A stretch of 51,946 bases of DNA. Source: a virus. Its lineage: Duplodnaviria > Heunggongvirae > Uroviricota > Caudoviricetes. The DNA is taken from the IMG/VR virus record IMGVR_UViG_3300044259_000172; one strand, 5' to 3'. A model generated the notes under the pieces. The model worked only from the letters and a program-made list of their open reading frames with translations, searched no databases and had not been told where the DNA came from. Every line of letters starts with the position of its first letter. Position 1 is the first letter of the stretch. Positions 22,670 to 30,806 of this stretch are shown one piece after another. The position numbers and the translations under genes were made by a program.

Positions 22670-23206
22670 TTAATTCTGAGCTACTTTAGCATCATCATAA
22701 TTTCTGTTATCATTCATAATATTCTTGTAAAGAGAACGATTGCGGAGCATATGATCAGCACAATGAGCCGCAGCCCAACTGTCAGGTTTAATTACAGGAT
22801 CCACTTGACATACTCCTCTGATATATCCAATTGCTTCCTGAACTACACAAGATGATCCATACTTTTTATTAGGATTGATATCAAGATGCACTTCAATATC
22901 TCTATCAGAGATTACATCTGCAAGTCTCAAATATAATTCAGAAACCTTATAAACTTCATTCATTAGTCTGAAGGAAGGGCGAGACACCTTTTTATCATAA
23001 TCTCGTTCAGTTTGAATTTCTCCAAAAATTTTACATCCATTCTTTCCATTGATATGGACAATAACAACTAGAGCATATTCAGCAAACCAAACATCTCCTT
23101 TTTTAAATTTTACCGAATCACATCCAATATAAATTTTCGTATCAGGTGATTGGTTATAAAGAAAATTCTTAATTTCATCGATATTAATTTTTGAACTATT
23201 GTCCAT
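22670..23206 (-). CDS. YkuK/DUF458-like RNase H-fold protein
   Basis: KIYIGCDS, RLMNEV, EVHLDIN, IKP.SWAA..CAD. Confidence 0.75.
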   Translation of the reverse strand: MDNSSKINIDEIKNFLYNQSPDTKIYIGCDSVKFKKGDVWFAEYALVVIVHINGKNGCKIFGEIQTERDYDKKVSRPSFRLMNEVYKVSELYLRLADVISDRDIEVHLDINPNKKYGSSCVVQEAIGYIRGVCQVDPVIKPDSWAAAHCADHMLRNRSLYKNIMNDNRNYDDAKVAQN

Positions 23207-23676: not shown

Positions 23677-23752
23677 TGGTGGGTCCTGAAAGATTCAAAC
23701 TTTCGTCTTACCGGTTAAGAGCCGGATGTAATAGTCACTATACGAAAGACCC
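23677..23752 (-). tRNA. tRNA-Lys(CTT)
   Basis: Cloverleaf, loop CT-CTT-AA, encoded CCA. Confidence 0.85.
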
Positions 23753-23756
23753 AAAA

Positions 23757-23966
23757 TCGTGCCACCTGATAGGATTCGAACCAATCTTTTAATTGAGAAT
23801 AATAACTAGAAGCTGTTGCTAGGTATTCGAGGAGGTAATACGTGGTTAATTCCACACAGCAACTTTCCCTCCATCCATCTACCTTCTTACGCTTGTTACT
23901 AATCTAAATTAAAGCCTCTTTAAGTATCCATACATATTCTTGGCCAAGAATTTAGAGGCAGGCGAC
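23757..23966 (-). ncRNA. 210-nt tRNA-ended structured RNA
   Basis: Acceptor GTCGCCT/AGGTGGC, T arm with TTCGAAT, long central helix and pseudoknotted core; 3' end ACGA. Confidence 0.6.
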
Positions 23967-23975
23967 ATATAAAAT

Positions 23976-24233
23976 TTAATGAATATAAGCTAAAATAAGA
24001 TCGCGAACAATCTTTGGGGTTACAGCGAAATTGAATCTAATTTCATCCGATTTATAACCAAGTTGAGACATTGGAGTCCCACAACAATCACAAACCCATT
24101 CAATTTTTTCACCGACTTCAGTTTTCTTAAAATTGATAGGTTGTTTAAGATTTCCACCTTTAATATGAACATTTGTTTTACCAGCAGTCCATTGATATGT
24201 TTTATCTTCTACTTCAATATTTCTATAACTCAT
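23976..24233 (-). CDS. Hypothetical protein inside the tRNA array
   Basis: ORF with AAGGA RBS; CDCCG motif. Confidence 0.6.
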   Translation of the reverse strand: MSYRNIEVEDKTYQWTAGKTNVHIKGGNLKQPINFKKTEVGEKIEWVCDCCGTPMSQLGYKSDEIRFNFAVTPKIVRDLILAYIH

Positions 24234-24270
24234 TTCAAGATCCTTATTTAGGAGATTGTAAAAATTTATT

Positions 24271-24371
24271 TGATGGAGCCATAGAGGAATTGAACCTCTT
24301 CACCCGCCGCTAACATCCTCCAACTACATTGCCCTTTCTGACAGGCGGTTTCAGCGTAGTCGTCTGACCCC
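24271..24371 (-). ncRNA. 101-nt tmRNA-TLD-like RNA with alanine identity
   Basis: GGGGTCA/TGGCTCC acceptor with G3.U70 and A73; AGAGG-TTCAATT-CCTCT T arm; no D or anticodon arm. Confidence 0.6.
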
Positions 24372-24380
24372 ATTAAAATA

Positions 24381-24456
24381 TGGTGTTCCTGGTCGGATTC
24401 GAACCGACACTTGATGGTTTCTAAAACCATTGCCTCTACCATTGGGCTACAAGAAC
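24381..24456 (-). tRNA. tRNA-Leu(TAG), short variable loop
   Basis: ATGGT-TTTAGAA-ACCAT, CCA. Confidence 0.85.
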
Positions 24457-24464
24457 AATTTATA

Positions 24465-24558
24465 TGGAGGAAGAAGTTGGTCTCGATCCAAAGACGTAAG
24501 TCGCTTTACGCCCGATCAGTTTAGCAAACTGTCTTGAGTCCTACTCAATTCATCTTCC
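24465..24558 (-). tRNA. tRNA-Ser(GCT)
   Basis: Loop TTGCTAA, long variable arm, CCA. Confidence 0.8.
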
Positions 24559-24564
24559 TTAGAA

Positions 24565-24640
24565 TGGCTCAGAGTGAAGGGTTCGAACCTTCAATTTCCT
24601 GGATCAAAGCCAGGTGCCTTACCAATTTGGCCAACTCTGA
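24565..24640 (-). tRNA. tRNA-Gln(TTG)
   Basis: CCTGG-CTTTGAT-CCAGG, CCA. Confidence 0.9.
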
Positions 24641-24648
24641 ATATTATT

Positions 24649-24724
24649 TGGTGCGCATGGCTGGAATTGAACCAACATCTTATCAGTTATGAGCTGAGGG
24701 CATTGACCATTATGCTACACGCGC
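24649..24724 (-). tRNA. tRNA(CAT), elongator Met or Ile2
   Basis: Loop CTCATAA, G1-C72, CCA. Confidence 0.85.
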
Positions 24725-24732
24725 TTTGATGT

Positions 24733-24933
24733 TTAAATCTTTTCCAGACAATGTTCTGTCATTTGAAGTGCTTTATGTAAGAAACCATCAATCATAATTG
24801 GGGTTTCTAATTGAACGATAAAGTGGCACATTTCAGGAAATTTAAATGCAATTCCTAAAACTTTACAAGTTTGCCCATCCATTTCAGAATTCGTAGAATG
24901 AATCCTAACAATTTCATCACATTCAAATTTCAT
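24733..24933 (-). CDS. Hypothetical protein inside the tRNA array
   Basis: ORF with AAGGA RBS. Confidence 0.55.
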   Translation of the reverse strand: MKFECDEIVRIHSTNSEMDGQTCKVLGIAFKFPEMCHFIVQLETPIMIDGFLHKALQMTEHCLEKI

Positions 24934-24957
24934 TATACGATTTTCCTTTTATAAGAT

Positions 24958-25034
24958 TGGTGCGTCTGACTGGGCTCGAACCAGTGACCTTCGGGTTAGA
25001 AATCCGGTGCTCTATCCAACTGAGCTACAGACGC
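24958..25034 (-). tRNA. tRNA-Arg(TCT)
   Basis: Loop TTTCTAA, canonical D and T arms, CCA. Confidence 0.85.
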
Positions 25035-25037
25035 AAA

Positions 25038-25141
25038 TAAAGTGATTAGCCTTCCAGGCCGGATTCGAACCGACATACTCCAATTACTCGATTAACGACG
25101 CATTAGAAGTGCGTTGAGATACTGGAAGGCTAATCACTTTA
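25038..25141 (-). ncRNA. D-armless Arg(TCT) tRNA-like RNA inside a perfect 20-bp inverted repeat
   Basis: TAAAGTGATTAGCCTTCCAG repeat arms at 25038-25057 and 25122-25141; ACGCA-CTTCTAA-TGCGT; GTCGG-TTCGAAT-CCGGC. Confidence 0.6.
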
Positions 25142-25150
25142 AATTATTCT

Positions 25151-25372
25151 TTATTCATCAAAGGTGATAAAACCTTTTTCCTTAAGTTGGGACAAGAGCA
25201 TTCTTACCATATAAGAGGTATCACCAAGATCATTATCTTGATCGCAATTATAAAATATTTCAACTGCTGCAACTTTTAACAATTCAGGAAGAGCCATCTG
25301 AGAATGGAGAACAATAGGCTCTCCTAAAAGCTTAATCAGTTTAAGCTGAATATTTTCCTTTGTAATTTTCAT
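25151..25372 (-). CDS. Hypothetical early protein
   Basis: Follows the promoter at 25406-25433. Confidence 0.55.
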   Translation of the reverse strand: MKITKENIQLKLIKLLGEPIVLHSQMALPELLKVAAVEIFYNCDQDNDLGDTSYMVRMLLSQLKEKGFITFDE

Positions 25373-25448
25373 TTTGAATTACTCTCTCTATCAGTTGAGA
25401 GTTAGATACTATCACAATCTGAGAGAATGTAAATAGGTAATTTTTATT

Positions 25449-25625
25449 TTATTTAGAAAGATTACCAATTATTTCTGAACAAGAAAGGCAAAAATAAATA
25501 TGTTGACCTCTATTACGAAAAGAATAGGTAGCAATTACTTCTGTTCCACTATTCATTTCTTTATCGCAACCTCGGCAATAAGCAGTACGTAGAATTTTTC
25601 TACGATTTATTTCTCTATCTGTCAT
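25449..25625 (-). CDS. Small Cys-rich (CxxC...CxxC) protein
   Basis: Start re-set to MTDREINRRK; CRGC and CLSC. Confidence 0.55.
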   Translation of the reverse strand: MTDREINRRKILRTAYCRGCDKEMNSGTEVIATYSFRNRGQHIYFCLSCSEIIGNLSK

Positions 25626-25655
25626 ATTAATCTTTCTAATTTTATATTTTAAAAC

Positions 25656-25731
25656 TGGTGGGTGCGGTGGGAATCGAACCCACGTAACTCTGCTTAAAAG
25701 GCAGATCCCTAAACCGCTCGGACACACACCC
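25656..25731 (-). tRNA. tRNA-Lys(TTT)
   Basis: TCTGC-CTTTTAA-GCAGA, CCA. Confidence 0.9.
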
Positions 25732-25778
25732 ATTTTGGATTTCCTTGGTTTAGCCTATCAACTTAATAATAGGATTTA

Positions 25779-25875
25779 AAATACATGATTGCAAACGGCG
25801 TATCCACATCGAAGTTTCTATATATAACCTAACGCCGTATAACGGAAATATAGACTTGAGCTTCATCATGTATTT
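25779..25875 (-). ncRNA. Structured (pseudoknotted) spacer RNA candidate
   Basis: 11-bp closing stem AAATACATGAT/ATCATGTATTT; TCTATAT/ATATAGA crossed by ACGGCGT/ACGCCGT. Confidence 0.45.
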
Positions 25876-25878
25876 AAT

Positions 25879-25954
25879 TGGTGTCTCCCCTCGGAATCAA
25901 ACCGAGTCCCTTTGTTCTTCAGACAAATGTGCGCATCAGCTACACCAGAGAGAC
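25879..25954 (-). tRNA. tRNA-Phe(GAA)
   Basis: TTTGT-CTGAAGA-ACAAA, CCA. Confidence 0.85.
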
Positions 25955-25961
25955 ATTAAAA

Positions 25962-26035
25962 TGGCGGACCATACGGGTATCGATCCCGTGATTTCACTTA
26001 GACAGAGTGACATGTTACCATTACATCAATGATCC
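25962..26035 (-). tRNA. tRNA-Asp(GTC)
   Basis: TCACT-CTGTCTA-AGTGA, G73-CCA. Confidence 0.85.
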
Positions 26036-26673
26036 AATAATTTTCTTCCTCTACTCCAACCTTCAGGAATGGGACCTTTAATTTTTTTAACTTCAATTCC
26101 ATTATTGATCCAAATAGAACCAAATTGAGAATTATTTTTTCCTATATATTTCCCTTTATGTGAATTAGACATTTTTAATTTTGTTTCCTCAGAATGGCTT
26201 TTACCCGTCCAATCAGGAGCTTTTAATTTACCTTCTTTATGAAGGATTTTATTACTTTCAGATAATCTAAGCGATGATCTTTTTCTAAATTCTAGATCTT
26301 TAGCTAATATTTTATTAGTTTTCATAGCAGCTTTTGATGATCTTAATTTATGAGATTCAGATCCATCATTAAGATAACCCCATCCACCTTTACCTCCTGG
26401 GCAAAGATTATAAACATCATTCCTTTTGAGGAATTCTTCGTTCACAATCTCAGCTTCTTTTTCATTCATTTCCTTTTCGGAAGAGCATTCAAACAAGATT
26501 TCTCTTTTAAAATTCTCAATTCCAAATTTAGAAATAGCTCTTTTAAGAAGCTTCCCAGAACCCATATAACCATCTTCTTTATTAGAAGTCATATGCTTTC
26601 CGATATAAATTTTACCATTTAGCAAGTTGGTAGTCTTGTAAATTAGGAAAAATTGATTTGATAAACCTGTCAT
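26026..26673 (-). CDS. GIY-YIG homing endonuclease (Seg-like) with NUMOD3
   Basis: IYKTTNLLNGKIYIGKH, YMGSG, YNL..GG.GG, HSEETKLKMS; start re-set to MTGLSN, 5 nt after TATAAATA (26679-26686). Confidence 0.9.
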   Translation of the reverse strand: MTGLSNQFFLIYKTTNLLNGKIYIGKHMTSNKEDGYMGSGKLLKRAISKFGIENFKREILFECSSEKEMNEKEAEIVNEEFLKRNDVYNLCPGGKGGWGYLNDGSESHKLRSSKAAMKTNKILAKDLEFRKRSSLRLSESNKILHKEGKLKAPDWTGKSHSEETKLKMSNSHKGKYIGKNNSQFGSIWINNGIEVKKIKGPIPEGWSRGRKLLDH

Positions 26674-26702
26674 ACAGATATTTATACAAATCAATTTTTC
26701 GA

Positions 26703-26775
26703 TGAGCGGGTGAAGGGAATCAAACCCTCTTCTTCGGCTTGGAAGGCCGAGGCACAATCAATATACCACACCAGC
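26703..26775 (-). tRNA. tRNA-Gly(TCC), CCA not fully encoded
   Basis: TCGGC-CTTCCAA-GCCGA, U73. Confidence 0.8.
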
Positions 26776-26840
26776 AAAATAAAGGAAAAACTAATAAGGT
26801 GAACTTGGCAAACAAATATTCACTAACATTAGTTTTTCGA

Positions 26841-26911
26841 TGTTGCGGCGCCCGGAGTCGAACCGGAAAAAATTGGCTTATGAGACCAATCGGGAACCCT
26901 TCCTCACCGCA
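26841..26911 (-). tRNA. tRNA-Met(CAT) with a shortened D arm, CCA not fully encoded
   Basis: Loop CTCATAA, TGCGGTG/CGCCGCA acceptor, canonical T arm. Confidence 0.7.
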
Positions 26912-26920
26912 ATATTTTAT

Positions 26921-26946
26921 AAGGAGAACTCTAAACATTCTCAACT
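26921..26946. repeat. 26-bp direct repeat copy 1 (copy 2 at 29615-29640)
   Basis: AAGGAGAACTCTAAACATTCTCAACT is identical at both sites. Confidence 0.85.
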
Positions 26947-26950
26947 AAAA

Positions 26951-27045
26951 TGGCCGGAAGCTGGTAGTGTCGATCTCCAAACGTGGTACTAGCACGTTCC
27001 ATCAGATTTCAAGTCTGAGTCAAGGGCCGCCTTGATTAACTTCCG
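26951..27045 (-). tRNA. tRNA-Ser(TGA)
   Basis: TCAGA-CTTGAAA-TCTGA, long variable arm, G73-CCA. Confidence 0.85.
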
Positions 27046-27060
27046 TAAACTTTGTTAATT

Positions 27061-27137
27061 TGGTAGGAACAATTGGATTTACACCAATACCTTCTGGTTT
27101 ACAACGCCAGATGAACTGTACCTTATTCGATATTCCT
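27061..27137 (-). tRNA. Atypical tRNA with a 9-nt anticodon loop (CGTTGTAAA; Thr-TGT or Tyr-GTA register)
   Basis: TCTGG/CCAGA stem, AGGAATA/TGTTCCT acceptor, CCA. Confidence 0.6.
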
Positions 27138-27140
27138 AAA

Positions 27141-27226
27141 TGGTGGGCAAAGAGAGACTCGAACTCTCACGTCTCAAAGGACACTTGGTTCTTAACCAAG
27201 CAAGGCTACCATTACATCATTTGCCC
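27141..27226 (-). tRNA. tRNA-Leu(AAG), class II
   Basis: CTTGG-TTAAGAA-CCAAG, long variable arm, A73-CCA. Confidence 0.75.
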
Positions 27227-27230
27227 ATGA

Positions 27231-27374
27231 ACTTTATGAGTTTCATCATTTTGCTCTATAGGGCACGACTCCTAGTTAAACGAACATACAAAATGAATTA
27301 CTCATTAAAGGTAAATAAGGGATGGATCCGTCGATCAATTAGCCATGCGGACATGCTACACACTTCTTATTTAC
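27231..27374 (-). ncRNA. Two-domain structured spacer RNA candidate
   Basis: GTAAATAAG/CTTATTTAC, TAGC-ATG/CAT-GGCTA, CATTTTG/CAAAATG and ATGAG/CTCAT stems. Confidence 0.45.
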
Positions 27375-27384
27375 ACTTAATATT

Positions 27385-27476
27385 TGGTACCTGTAGTCGG
27401 ATTCGAACCGACTCGAGAACGCTAATCTGGCGCTGAAAGACTTATAAGATCTCCCTGTGTACCTACACCTACAGGC
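27385..27476 (-). tRNA. Non-canonical class II tRNA with anticodon TAT (Ile codon ATA)
   Basis: Loop CTTATAA, G8, 4-bp D stem with AGGT loop, up to 7-bp anticodon stem, long V arm, A73-CCA. Confidence 0.7.
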
Positions 27477-27480
27477 AAAA

Positions 27481-27556
27481 TGGTATCCATGGTCGGATTC
27501 GAACCGACACTTTGGAGATTTTAAGTCTCCTGCCTCTGCCATTGGGCTACATGGAC
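27481..27556 (-). tRNA. tRNA-Leu(TAA), short variable loop
   Basis: GGAGA-CTTAAAA-TCTCC, CCA. Confidence 0.85.
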
Positions 27557-27565
27557 ATATTATAT

Positions 27566-27641
27566 TGGACCAAATTAATAGATTTGAACTATTCCTTTCT
27601 GTTCCACAAACAGACGTGCTAACCGCTAACACTAAACTTGG
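27566..27641 (-). tRNA. tRNA-His(GTG) without encoded G-1, U73
   Basis: TCTGT-TTGTGGA-ACAGA, CCA. Confidence 0.8.
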
Positions 27642-27648
27642 ATAGATT

Positions 27649-27723
27649 TGGCTGCTGAGATAGGAGTTGCACCTATAATCACCGCGTTAACGGCAGCTGC
27701 TTTACTAATTAGCACACTCAGCA
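27649..27723 (-). tRNA. Asn-bodied tRNA with an out-of-register anticodon loop (CGTTAAC)
   Basis: T1-A72 and G73 as in tRNA-Asn; GTT falls at positions 33-35 in the best stem. Confidence 0.55.
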
Positions 27724-27731
27724 AAATTGAA

Positions 27732-27809
27732 TGGTACGCCTGACCGGATTTGAACCGGCGAATGGTCTCCTTGAAAGGGAGGTGGCTTAGACCGCTTGCC
27801 AACAGACGT
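27732..27809 (-). tRNA. tRNA-Glu(TTC)
   Basis: CCTCC-CTTTCAA-GGAGA, CCA. Confidence 0.9.
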
Positions 27810-27814
27810 ATAAA

Positions 27815-27904
27815 TGGTGGGAGATGGGCTGAATCGAACACCTTGCCGCAAGGACGTGGGCTACAACCACGCGCCAGGACCACCTAGCCTTACTTGCATC
27901 TCCC
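27815..27904 (-). tRNA. Sec-like-fold tRNA with anticodon GTA (Tyr)
   Basis: 8-bp acceptor GGGAGATG/CATCTCCC, 6-bp D stem with TGGT loop, 6-bp anticodon stem, long V arm, A73-CCA. Confidence 0.65.
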
Positions 27905-27969
27905 TTAAATTGGGTTAAACTTTTTTACCAAGAGTCTAAAAACTTGGAAACCTCTAATTAAGGGGTAAA

Positions 27970-28044
27970 TGGTACGTATAAATGGATTTGAACCATTGAC
28001 CACTACCTTATCGGGGTAGCGCTCTACCACTGAGCTATATACGT
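27970..28044 (-). tRNA. tRNA-Ile(GAT)
   Basis: CTACC-CCGATAA-GGTAG, CCA. Confidence 0.85.
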
Positions 28045-28059
28045 AAAATTAGATGTATT

Positions 28060-28145
28060 TGGCTGGGATAGCAGGTATCGATCCTGCCTGGATAAATCCA
28101 ACCTCTGGTTAACAGCCAGGTGCCTTACCTCTCGGCCATATCCCA
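28060..28145 (-). tRNA. tRNA-Asn(GTT) with a long variable arm
   Basis: CCTGG-CTGTTAA-CCAGA, extra TGGA-TTTA-TCCA arm, G73-CCA. Confidence 0.8.
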
Positions 28146-28306
28146 ACAAAATACATCGTCATAATAATTAAACATCACATTTTAGTTTATAATATTAGGA
28201 TTGTGACTTCCCTTTTGAGGATAAGTACCTAATTCTCTTTTACGATTTTCTCTATTCAATTTTGAAAGAACTGAGTGACTTGTTATTGTCTCTCTTGATT
28301 ATGAAT

Positions 28307-28337
28307 TATTTATATCATACATTTGGTTTGTTGTACA
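28307..28337 (-). promoter_or_regulatory. Composite early/late promoter (TGTACA-N17-TATAAATA)
   Basis: TGTACA at 28332-28337 and TATAAATA at 28307-28314; the same design occurs at 32133-32163. Confidence 0.7.
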
Positions 28338-28346
28338 TAACTTTTT

Positions 28347-28667
28347 TCAAAAAATTCTAATTTTTTTAGGTTTTTTGTAAAAAGTAACAGATTCGATAGA
28401 ATGAATTCCATATTCTCCACAAGGACAATATTCTTGAAATGTTTCAATCAAATCAATATTAGCTAGATAATTATCTGGCCAATTATTTCTAAATTCGTGA
28501 AATGGAACCTTTCCTTTATGAGCTTTAATTAATTCAATAGCAGGTTTAATGATTTCTTCGATTTCTCGTAATGAAATGTCTCTAATAGAATGCACATAAT
28601 CAGCATCATTAGTATCACCTTCAATTACAATTTCATAATCTTTAGGTTCATTACTAAAATTTTCCAT
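28347..28667 (-). CDS. Hypothetical protein inside the tRNA array
   Basis: IEGDTNDADYV...CPCGEYGIHSIES. Confidence 0.65.
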   Translation of the reverse strand: MENFSNEPKDYEIVIEGDTNDADYVHSIRDISLREIEEIIKPAIELIKAHKGKVPFHEFRNNWPDNYLANIDLIETFQEYCPCGEYGIHSIESVTFYKKPKKIRIF

Positions 28668-28879
28668 TAAAATTTTCCAATTCTATATTCTAGAATTTTC
28701 TTGTATTCGTTCATAGCATGATATTGATCATAAAGTATTGAAGTCTCTTCTTCTGAACATTTTCTCTCAGAGGAAGGCAAAGAAAGAAATTTTAATAAAC
28801 TTTCAATTTTTGTTGTCAAATCAGAATGTTCATTCAAAACTCGCAATTCATGAGGTTTAGGTAAATTCATTTCTATCAA
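28667..28879 (-). CDS. Small coiled-coil hypothetical protein (crAss001_48-like pattern)
   Basis: RV..E..DL..KIE.L.KFL...L..QY.AM..Y..ILE.RI. Confidence 0.6.
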   Translation of the reverse strand: MIEMNLPKPHELRVLNEHSDLTTKIESLLKFLSLPSSERKCSEEETSILYDQYHAMNEYKKILEYRIGKF

Positions 28880-29036
28880 TTTCCTTTATTAGAGGTCTCA
28901 TTTGAGAGATATCTTTGTAAAATTTCTTTTTAGATTTTATATCAAGTTCTTCATCTAAAGTATTAATGTAATTTAAAATTCTATCAAGAGTTTCCCATTG
29001 ACCTCTTATGTAATAAGTCAATTCTGAATCATTCAT
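28857..29036 (-). CDS. Hypothetical protein
   Basis: Start re-set to MNDSELTYYIRGQWETL, after tRNA-Trp. Confidence 0.55.
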   Translation of the reverse strand: MNDSELTYYIRGQWETLDRILNYINTLDEELDIKSKKKFYKDISQMRPLIKEIDRNEFT

Positions 29037-29052
29037 AAAATTTATCCTATAA

Positions 29053-29127
29053 TGGCGCCAGCTGTAGGAATCGAACCTACTACACAAGGTTTTGGAGACC
29101 TGTATGTACCATAACACTCAACTGGCA
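29053..29127 (-). tRNA. tRNA-Trp(CCA)
   Basis: Loop CTCCAAA, G73-CCA. Confidence 0.85.
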
Positions 29128-29132
29128 ATTTA

Positions 29133-29227
29133 TGGTAAGCCGAGCAGGATTTACACCTGCAAAGATTTCTGATCAAGAAATCACCCGCTCTTACTGCGGG
29201 CGCGTTTATTAATTTCGCCACCGACTT
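29133..29227 (-). tRNA. Degenerate class II Leu-bodied tRNA (loop AG-TAA-GA, D loop lacks GG)
   Basis: CCCGC/GCGGG stem, long V arm, A73-CCA. Confidence 0.55.
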
Positions 29228-29237
29228 ATAAAATATA

Positions 29238-29311
29238 TGGTAGGTCTCAATAGAATCGAACTATTGTCTACTCCGTGTAAAAGAGGTATTTTACCATTAA
29301 ACTAGAGACCC
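29238..29311 (-). tRNA. tRNA-Val(TAC)
   Basis: Loop TTTACAC, CCA. Confidence 0.85.
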
Positions 29312-29316
29312 ATAAA

Positions 29317-29392
29317 TGGAGCCGTTAGACGGGTTCGAACCGACGACAACCTGATTACAAATCAGGTGCTCTTCCAACTGAGCTATAACGGC
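29317..29392 (-). tRNA. tRNA-Thr(TGT)
   Basis: CCTGA-TTTGTAA-TCAGG, CCA. Confidence 0.9.
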
Positions 29393-29434
29393 ATTTAATA
29401 ATTATCAAAGAACAGAAGAATAAAATCTTCGAAA

Positions 29435-29511
29435 TGGAGAACTAGATCAGATTTTAACTGATGAATAATGGTTTTGCAGACCACCCCGTTAGAACACTCC
29501 GGCACTAGTTC
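29435..29511 (-). tRNA. tRNA-Cys(GCA)
   Basis: GTGGT-CTGCAAA-ACCAT, U73-CCA. Confidence 0.8.
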
Positions 29512-29652
29512 ATTAAATCTTGTATATAGCAGACTGGACTTTAACCACTTTAATTTGATATTTCTGCGCAGGTCTTTCAAATTATCTTACTTAAACGTAA
29601 GGCTATACCTCTGAAAGGAGAACTCTAAACATTCTCAACTTATATATGCAAA

Positions 29653-29735
29653 TATTGACAACGATTTCCGAGGATTCGAACCTCACCTCTCGCCATTCCG
29701 GGCCAGTGTGCTTCCACGTTACACTACATCAATCT
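29653..29735 (-). pseudogene. Degenerate tRNA-like sequence
   Basis: Intact D arm (GTGT/GCAC) and T arm (TGAGG-TTCGAAT-CCTCG); broken anticodon stem; about 8-nt insert before the acceptor 3' strand; no CCA. Confidence 0.45.
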
Positions 29736-29871
29736 CATCTTTATAGAAATCCTGCAAGATTTTTAAAAGATGTGTCTCAAATGAGCCAATAAGAATTGCA
29801 GTCCTTATTCCTCATTTCGAATTCAGTTTGAATGTTTCCACCTGATAGCCCACATACAAAGCTCTTCATTC

Positions 29872-29947
29872 TGGTGGACGATATCGGGTTCGAACCGATG
29901 ACTTCCTGATTGCAGGTCAGGTACTCTCCCTACTGAGTTAATCGCCC
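29872..29947 (-). tRNA. tRNA-Ala(TGC)
   Basis: CCTGA-CCTGCAA-TCAGG, G3.U70, CCA. Confidence 0.9.
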
Positions 29948-29994
29948 ATTATTTGTTGTACTAAATTTGTTTTATTATTTATAACTCAAATTTA

Positions 29995-30576
29995 TTAAAT
30001 GCGACCTTTATACCATCCATCTGGCATATTATCAATATCTTTTTTAATCTTTTTATTTTCAATTCCATTAGTTATCCACATAGAACCAAATTGGGAATTT
30101 TTAGAACCTTGATTCTTTGATTTTCTCATTTTTTGTTTAGTTTCTTCAGAATGTTTTTTACCATTCCAATTATAAGTATTCTTCCAACTATATTCTTCCC
30201 AAATTTTTCTAGATGTTCCTCCTCGACTACAAAGATCTTTTATTTTTTCATTGTCAAGATCTTTGAAAAAGCCTCTTCTTGGATTTCCAAATTCATTAAT
30301 ATAATCGAAATTACCTTCACCTCCAGGTGATAAATTATATGTTCTTTCAGAAACAAGAATGATTTCTCTTTCTTTAGAAATCATATCCGATTTATTATCA
30401 AATATAAAAAGAATTTCTTTTTTAAAGTTTTCAAACCCGTATTTCTTAATTGCTTGTTTTATAAGTTTACCAGAACCCATATAACCATCATCAAGATTTT
30501 TAGTTTTATGCATTCCAATATAATATTTGGAATTTATTAAATTAGTAATCTTATATACGGTATAATACATCATCAA
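29995..30576 (-). CDS. GIY-YIG homing endonuclease (Seg-like) with NUMOD3, second copy
   Basis: VYKITNLINSKYYIGMH, YMGSG, YNLSPGGEG, HSEETKQKM. Confidence 0.9.
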   Translation of the reverse strand: MMMYYTVYKITNLINSKYYIGMHKTKNLDDGYMGSGKLIKQAIKKYGFENFKKEILFIFDNKSDMISKEREIILVSERTYNLSPGGEGNFDYINEFGNPRRGFFKDLDNEKIKDLCSRGGTSRKIWEEYSWKNTYNWNGKKHSEETKQKMRKSKNQGSKNSQFGSMWITNGIENKKIKKDIDNMPDGWYKGRI

Positions 30577-30620
30577 TCTCTAAAATATAAAGTCATTATA
30601 GACTATTTATATTTTAGAGA
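30577..30620 (-). promoter_or_regulatory. RBS-sequestering hairpin containing late promoter TATAAATA
   Basis: 15-bp arms at 30577-30591 and 30606-30620; TATAAATA at 30604-30611 lies in the 5' arm. Confidence 0.8.
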
Positions 30621-30627
30621 AATACAG

Positions 30628-30704
30628 TGGTCAGGGTAGCTGGATTTGAACCAGCGTTGCCACCTTCCAAGGGTGACCGAATGACCAGGCTTTCACATAC
30701 CCTG
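30628..30704 (-). tRNA. tRNA-Pro(TGG)
   Basis: TCACC-CTTGGAA-GGTGG, CCA. Confidence 0.9.
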
Positions 30705-30730
30705 ACTAAATACAACTCTATAAATTATTA

Positions 30731-30806
30731 TGGAGCACTTACAAGGATTCGAACCTTGATCCTGACCTTCGTAAAGTCTCGCTCTTTCCAGTTGAGCTAT
30801 AAATGC
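30731..30806 (-). tRNA. tRNA-Arg(ACG)
   Basis: Loop TTACGAA, canonical D and T arms, CCA. Confidence 0.85.

Follow-up and report, generated by a model that had tools for sequence, protein, structure and literature searches.

The tRNA array of this phage contains, at the end of one of its runs, a 101-nt sequence with a tRNA-like acceptor stem and T arm, and the question is what kind of RNA, if any, it encodes. The window, i.e., the whole stretch of DNA analyzed here, is 51,946 nucleotides long and belongs to a complete IMG/VR virus record of 154,347 bp with direct terminal repeats and a genome GC content of 31.6%, which is a T4-type myovirus by its gene content (portal, tail sheath, large terminase, ribonucleotide reductase, and beta-glucosyltransferase). 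The array occupies positions 23677–30806 and comprises 27 genes called by ARAGORN, all on the minus strand, plus two further tRNAs from Rfam. The element (24271–24371, minus strand, read with nt 1 at position 24371) is the final member of a tight Met-Gln-Ser-Leu tRNA run whose AT-rich spacers are 8–9 nt long. It lies on the tRNA strand 9 nt past the encoded CCA of tRNA-Leu(UAG) (24381–24456, minus strand), which is called by both ARAGORN and the Rfam tRNA model, and the AT-rich spacer that separates the two (24372–24380) is like those among its neighbors. The sequencing runs listed as containing this DNA were three of DNA and none of RNA. Two of them may come from the source sample, and the third, an independent run, contains a near-identical strain in which this spacer has one more base and the element is unchanged over the part covered, a comparison that is uninformative. 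An 85-aa orphan ORF (23976–24233, minus strand) starts 37 nt downstream of the element; it has no homolog among 5.8 billion proteins and no Pfam or PHROG match. Neither a promoter-like nor a terminator-like site of the element's own directly adjoins it.

On the minus strand, the 5′ acceptor strand GGGGUCA (nt 1–7, 24365–24371) forms seven pairs with UGGCUCC (nt 91–97, 24275–24281), namely G1-C, G2-C, G3.U, G4-C, U5.G, C6-G, and A7-U, and is completed by the discriminator A98 and an encoded UCA in place of CCA (24271–24274). The T arm AGAGG-UUCAAUU-CCUCU (nt 73–89, 24283–24299) has five perfect pairs and a loop with the consensus GGUUCAAUUCC. These readings confirm the acceptor stem with G3.U70, the discriminator A, the perfect T arm, and the ATCA 3′ end that a preliminary description had reported. 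Both stems are free of mismatches, and the acceptor stem has two G.U pairs, the second being U5.G68. The acceptor strands pair only at an offset of one, with A90 (24282) left unpaired where the T stem meets the acceptor stem. Neither A90 nor the CCA encoded by the neighboring genes had figured in that description; 25 of the 27 array tRNAs called by ARAGORN encode CCA. Two array tRNAs, a tRNA-Gly(UCC) and a tRNA-Met (26704–26775 and 26842–26914, minus strand), lack it, and in both the discriminator is followed by CAUCGAAAA.

Between the acceptor stem and the T arm lies a middle of 65 nt (nt 8–72, 24300–24364) that is not that of a tRNA and has 55% GC. A cloverleaf with D and anticodon arms is missing: ARAGORN and the Rfam tRNA model (RF00005) were silent, in agreement with the preliminary description, and relaxed ARAGORN returned implausible folds only. 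A tRNA-Sec or allo-tRNA (8/5-type) is not indicated either, since RF01852 gave 12.9 bits against a gathering score of 47 and aligned to the acceptor and T arm only. A tRNA with an intron or insertion was also rejected: about 1,700 single deletions within nt 8–72 were tested and none yielded a callable tRNA, and a simple, recent interruption of a tRNA is therefore not the explanation. The claim that a phage carries here a tRNA-shaped RNA gene without an anticodon arm is supported.

A frame of this kind can arise by chance. In a shuffled 52-kb window, counting both strands, a perfect T arm with a 7-bp acceptor is expected about 1.1 times, and a scan of the window for an acceptor plus T arm recovered three sites without a call, of which the element is one. 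However, a chance resemblance within a spacer is very improbable, given that the element is on the correct strand with tRNA-like spacing, a consensus T loop, and the exact alanine top, and that the GC content of its middle is reached by only 0.03% of 65-nt windows outside the array. For comparison, array tRNAs average 49% GC and the neutral sequence of the genome about 31%. Within the array, G3.U70 occurs only in the element and in tRNA-Ala. Taken together, the position, the strand, the GC content of the middle, and G3.U70 show that the tRNA-like frame is more than chance. The element is probably a real RNA gene because it has a tRNA-like position, a GC-rich middle, and a canonical alanine top.

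The internal pairings of the middle were assessed in the same way, by comparison with shuffled sequence. The three pairings that had been described, CGACUAC/GUAGUUG, GCUGA/UUAGC, and CCGCC/GGCGG, are all present, but they are as frequent in shuffled sequence: a helix of at least 7 bp appears in 55% of dinucleotide shuffles of the middle, and the middle has 7 helices of at least 5 bp compared to a shuffle mean of 6.7. Since the three internal helices cross one another, they cannot all form. The folding energy of the middle is no better than that of shuffles (−12.5 compared to −15.2 ± 2.7 kcal/mol), and folding of the whole RNA compared to shuffles gave z = 0.15. When the acceptor and T arm were forced, the best predicted fold (−27.6 kcal/mol) contained the candidate arm H1 (24321–24362), in which nt 10–16 (24356–24362) pair with nt 45–51 (24321–24327), plus a small distal hairpin. 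The candidate helix H2 (24304–24348) pairs CCGCC at nt 24–28 (24344–24348) with GGCGG at nt 64–68 (24304–24308) and occupies the place of helix P2a in a tmRNA TLD. H1 (here about nt 10–17/44–51) and H2 are mutually crossing alternatives that are predicted to be about equally good (−20.4 and −21.9 kcal/mol, respectively). With its internal helices at chance level, H1 and H2 included, the pseudoknotted core suggested earlier is unsupported.

The alanine identity recognized by AlaRS consists of G3.U70 together with A73 and G2-C71. The element has the alanine set at its acceptor end, G1-C72, G2-C71, G3.U70, G4-C69, and A73, and so carries an acceptor stem with G3.U70 and a discriminator A as a tmRNA TLD does. 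tRNA-Ala and alanine minihelices have the same first four acceptor pairs and discriminator. Unlike tRNA-Ala, the element has no D or anticodon arm, no tRNA-model call, an encoded UCA, and a bulged A at the acceptor/T junction. From its sequence, alanylation of the element is plausible.

The preliminary description had gone further and interpreted the element as a TLD-only RNA that could sequester SmpB/EF-Tu or rescue stalled ribosomes. As positive controls, TLD-only RNAs of 77–107 nt were collected by a structural pattern scan of IMG/VR. These genuine phage TLD-only RNAs, which are similar in size to the element, score 47.6–72.4 bits with RF00023, above its gathering score, whereas the element has no match to RF00023, RF02544, or RF04321. 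In a 241-nt scan across the element with E values up to 10, there was no tmRNA match, and the top clan match was the tRNA-Sec alignment noted above. The jakobid-type model RF02544 gave no match on the element with E up to 1, and its best match in the genome lies elsewhere with 16.8 bits compared to a gathering score of 65 bits. Across the whole genome, the matches to all three models are elsewhere than at the element and are sub-threshold. The genome's top match for every tmRNA-type model is tRNA-Lys(UUU) (25656–25731, minus strand), with 28.8 bits for RF00023, 24.6 bits for RF04321 including downstream flank, and 21.7 bits for a covariance model (R1) that we built from five genuine phage TLD-only RNAs. 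As a tRNA it scores well (59.9 bits) and has G3-C70, and its scores with tmRNA models are probably due to its GGUUU-containing D loop. With R1, the element scored 9.6 bits in a partial alignment of its 3′ 48 nt only, compared to 42–54 bits for independent TLD-only RNAs, two AT-rich ones among them, and 42–102 bits for phage TLD-only tmRNAs as a whole. Ordinary array tRNAs scored 5.9–21.7 bits with the same model, most of them above the element.

The D loop of a TLD contacts the T loop and SmpB, as structural work has established. Its GG and UUCG are invariant in 10 of 10 aligned phage TLD-only RNAs, and the next A is present in 8 of 8. The motif GG-N-UUCGA(C) is absent from the element, which has GACGACUACGCUGAAA in its place. 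Before the T arm, the element has GUGA compared to GGAC in most TLD-only RNAs. In addition, its T arm is not stacked directly on the acceptor stem as in a TLD, since A90 intervenes, and none of the 10 aligned TLD-only RNAs has an extra base at this junction. The tmRNA-model and D-loop tests were negative, and they do not place the element in the tmRNA TLD family. As judged by these models, it is not a recognizable mini-tmRNA, and neither sequence nor structure models support a phage TLD-only tmRNA that engages SmpB. The TLD resemblance that is left would lie in the acceptor end, plus the topology if the helix 24–28/64–68 forms. No SmpB gene was found in the phage genome. Other tmRNA-type candidates were rejected as well. 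The codon strings DDYA and LAA in the element lie outside any closed tag frame and were taken as coincidence, and a micro tag frame, UAGUU-GGA-GGA-UGU-UAG, has no support. A two-piece tmRNA formed with the upstream tRNA-Leu gives a weak RF04321 match (16.3 bits), but the acceptor strands do not pair.

The kind of RNA that had been invoked does exist in phages. To our knowledge, a single cultured phage has been noted to have a TLD-only tmRNA. In IMG/VR, we found many of them, for example in loci L013 (7634–7712, minus strand), L024, L028 (4759–4837), L033 (2138–2214, minus strand), L041 (3457–3536), L044 (899–975, minus strand), L069 (14523–14607, minus strand), L073 (845–921, minus strand), and L076 (5218–5295), and AT-rich ones in L019 (13690–13793, minus strand) and L056 (11849–11954, minus strand). 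Their layout is GGGGCYG, a GG-N-UUCGAC loop, a short helix, GGAC, a T arm, and CAGCUCC-A. They pass the Rfam tmRNA model, several are inside tRNA arrays, and the ones checked are uncalled by ARAGORN; the L013 RNA has no blastn match in 50,697 GenBank phage records. Like the element, phage TLD-only tmRNAs are phage-encoded RNAs in the range of 77–107 nt without an anticodon arm or tag frame, and they share its first four pairs and discriminator, GGGG.../...CUCC-A with G3.U70, as well as a UUCRANU T loop. The element differs from them in its missing GG..UUCGA D loop, in GUGA instead of GGAC, and in the extra A. A TLD-only (CDS-less) tmRNA is known from mycobacteriophage DS6A (Hudson, Lau and Williams 2014, PMC4131195; PMC11915505), and CDS-less tmRNAs occur in jakobid mitochondria and Mallomonadaceae plastids (PMC11915505). 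The jakobid mitochondrial (RF02544) and Mallomonadaceae RNAs are message-less, tRNA-like alanine acceptors, as the element may be.

We next consider phages that share the gene adjoining the array, which encodes a DUF458/YkuK RNase H-like protein (22670–23206, minus strand). This protein has more than 4,000 homologs, mostly in uncultivated phages and frequently next to tRNA arrays. The relatives used here are 45 IMG/VR records sharing this DUF458/YkuK-like gene at 57–67% identity, and they are not close. A two-piece tmRNA scoring 91–156 bits is present in 28 of the 45 records, including 6 of the 6 others that are at least 90% complete. These permuted tmRNAs are found, for instance, in L002 (10911–11298) and in the records of L133, L145, L151, L160, L183, and L202, among others, and encode tags such as ANDEQFALAA, ANDERFALAA, and ANDDLYALAA, with a few long ones of 27–31 residues. 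In contrast, scans with the tmRNA models found no tmRNA in the complete 154-kb genome itself, nor is one hidden downstream of the DUF458 gene. The element shows no sequence similarity to the two-piece tmRNA of the relatives, and a remnant of such a tmRNA was rejected as its origin.

Since a tmRNA is absent here and present in the relatives, a minority substitute role for the element is conceivable. It could be a functional analog of a TLD-only tmRNA that is charged with alanine and enters trans-translation or titrates SmpB, EF-Tu, or AlaRS, in place of the relatives' two-piece tmRNA. Besides the distribution of tmRNAs, this reading is consistent with the alanine acceptor set, with the occurrence of genuine TLD-only RNAs in phage tRNA arrays, mostly without an encoded CCA, and with the topology that CCGCC/GGCGG would give, i.e., acceptor, 16-nt loop, helix, insert, 4-nt linker, and T arm. 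A TLD-like RNA inhibits tmRNA according to Mao et al. 2009, as cited in PMC4131195. Yet the element has no tmRNA, mt-tmRNA, or permuted-tmRNA match, falls far below genuine TLD-only RNAs with R1, lacks the GG and UUCGA of the TLD D loop, and has the extra A90. It is not at the tmRNA position of the relatives, and these share a single gene at 57–67% identity. We consider such an analog improbable. Slightly more doubtful is the fuller proposal that a divergent, message-less alanine acceptor RNA has replaced the two-piece tmRNA of all complete relatives and, though it lacks the canonical SmpB-binding D loop, acts on the host machinery for ribosome rescue or alanine charging.

Homologs of the element were sought at several levels. 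Exact-word scans of IMG/VR found no homolog, whether the word was taken from the element (a 26-mer and an 18-mer) or from the upstream tRNA-Leu (a 25-mer). With blastn and megablast against 50,697 phage records, the tRNA-Leu was matched and the element was not, and nhmmer against 83 related tRNA-array loci found no homolog of the element. A covariance model from the element sequence alone (R2), run over 900 kb of related arrays, had top matches of at most 28.8 bits, which were ordinary tRNAs. A structural pattern scan of JGI metagenomes produced 15 matches, all GC-rich and unrelated. A search via the portal gene returned no close relative. In the contigs of the closest DUF458 homologs (75–78% identity), the genes are arranged differently and the element is missing. 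Synteny could not be anchored on the downstream 85-aa ORF, which is itself without a homolog, and the element has no paralog inside its own genome. In these searches, the element is an orphan with no detectable relatives.

This orphan status is consistent with the main rival explanation, that the element is a decaying or rearranged remnant of a tRNA-Ala (or tmRNA) with no function and with processing signals still flanking it. The UCA in place of CCA, the unpaired A90, and the two acceptor G.U pairs also fit decay, as does a middle no more structured than shuffles, and the array holds several other aberrant tRNA-like sequences. However, the middle has 55% GC in a genome whose neutral sequence is near 31%, the acceptor and T stems are free of mismatches with the GGGG/CUCC-A top intact, and no deletion restores a tRNA. 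A remnant is thus unlikely, though a reading to be taken seriously.

The position of the element, exactly at the junction of the tRNA run and the 85-aa ORF, suggests another role, in processing or stability. The element may recruit RNase P and RNase Z so that the mRNA of the ORF is cut free of the tRNA run, or it may act as a protective 5′ structure on that mRNA; no terminator was found between the two. Other non-canonical sequences are also located at ORF/tRNA junctions in this array (23757–23966 and 25038–25141). Against such a role, the upstream tRNA-Leu is already a processing site and the alanine set would be left unexplained, and we give it little credence. The sequence at 23757–23966 (minus strand) consists of about 210 non-coding nt that separate the 85-aa ORF from tRNA-Lys(CUU), with a T-loop-like GGUUCGAAUCC at its 3′ end and no ARAGORN or Rfam call. 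The sequence at 25038–25141 (minus strand), between an ORF and tRNA-Arg and directly upstream of tRNA-Arg(UCU), has a tRNA-like core (Rfam tRNA, 32.2 bits at 25050–25128) with a UCU anticodon-like loop. A terminal duplex of about 19 perfect bp, AAAGUGAUUAGCCUUCCAG / CUGGAAGGCUAAUCACUUU, encloses this core and leaves no free 3′ end.

A parallel to the element comes from phage T4, where rnaC (species 1) and rnaD (species 2) (NC_000866, 70908–71171) encode non-tRNA stable RNAs of 119–139 nt. Like the element, they belong to a T4-type phage, in which they share the strand of a tRNA cluster and lie at its distal end, and rnaC (139 nt) has a tRNA-type T arm, CCGGG-UUCGAAU-CCCGG, near its 3′ end. Unlike the element, rnaC and rnaD have no clean 7-bp alanine-type acceptor stem, and by reading, without alignment, they show no sequence resemblance to it. 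With its tRNA-like 3′ features and its place as a non-tRNA gene that closes a tRNA run on the same strand, the element falls with rnaC and rnaD in a class that is descriptive and not a homology family. We know of no function described for rnaC and rnaD since the 1970s.

Our preferred explanation, which we hold to have about an even chance of being right, is that the element is a gene derived from a tRNA whose RNA product is processed, does not decode, and probably accepts alanine, and that it is comparable to T4 rnaC in its position and its missing cloverleaf. The module for tRNA-processing and charging enzymes, the acceptor and T arm, would be intact, and the D and anticodon arms would have been replaced by 65 GC-rich nt. 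We infer that the element is co-transcribed with the Met-Gln-Ser-Leu tRNA run and that its 5′ end would be made by RNase P. The transcript would then be cut after A98 and UCA converted to CCA, with a candidate CCA-adding enzyme of the phage at hand. This candidate is a 421-aa class-II nucleotidyltransferase encoded outside the window (G000:C1:127977–129242, minus strand; L226:799–2064) with 106.5 bits to Pfam PolyA_pol, and its top NCBIfam match is a CCA tRNA nucleotidyltransferase at 214 bits, below the equivalog cut-off of 290 bits. The route from UCA to CCA is plausible because of this enzyme and the two array tRNAs without an encoded CCA. Charging with alanine by alanyl-tRNA synthetase would follow, since the acceptor end carries the alanine set. 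Decoding would not be possible, and any action would be via the acceptor/T minihelix, as a stable alanine-accepting tRNA mimic.

Several findings count against a tRNA-like gene. No homolog that could show conservation or covariation was found in the searches above. RNase P, EF-Tu, and the CCA enzyme all recognize the coaxial stack of acceptor and T arm, which A90 would perturb, and the UCA cannot be charged in its encoded form. The chance-level folding of the middle and of the whole RNA and the sub-cut-off call of the CCA enzyme also weigh against it.

In phages with large tRNA arrays, small tRNA-shaped RNAs that are unable to decode keep appearing, and the element is an example of an alanine-type acceptor on a body that is not related to tmRNA. 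If RNAs of this kind are charged, alanine tRNA mimics would be a wider class than tmRNA models capture, one that would be relevant to the ways in which phages deal with host AlaRS, EF-Tu, ribosome rescue, or tRNA-directed defenses. The weight of this is modest, as the element is a single orphan sequence. In the related arrays, we also observed a recurrent RNA of about 88–92 nt that is uncalled by ARAGORN and unrelated to the element in sequence (L185:3999–4086, L202:2832–2921, L206:116–205, and L142:2457–2543). It has a 5′ YACAUUCAAGGC, a canonical T arm, and a 3′ GAGUGURUUUC without CCA.
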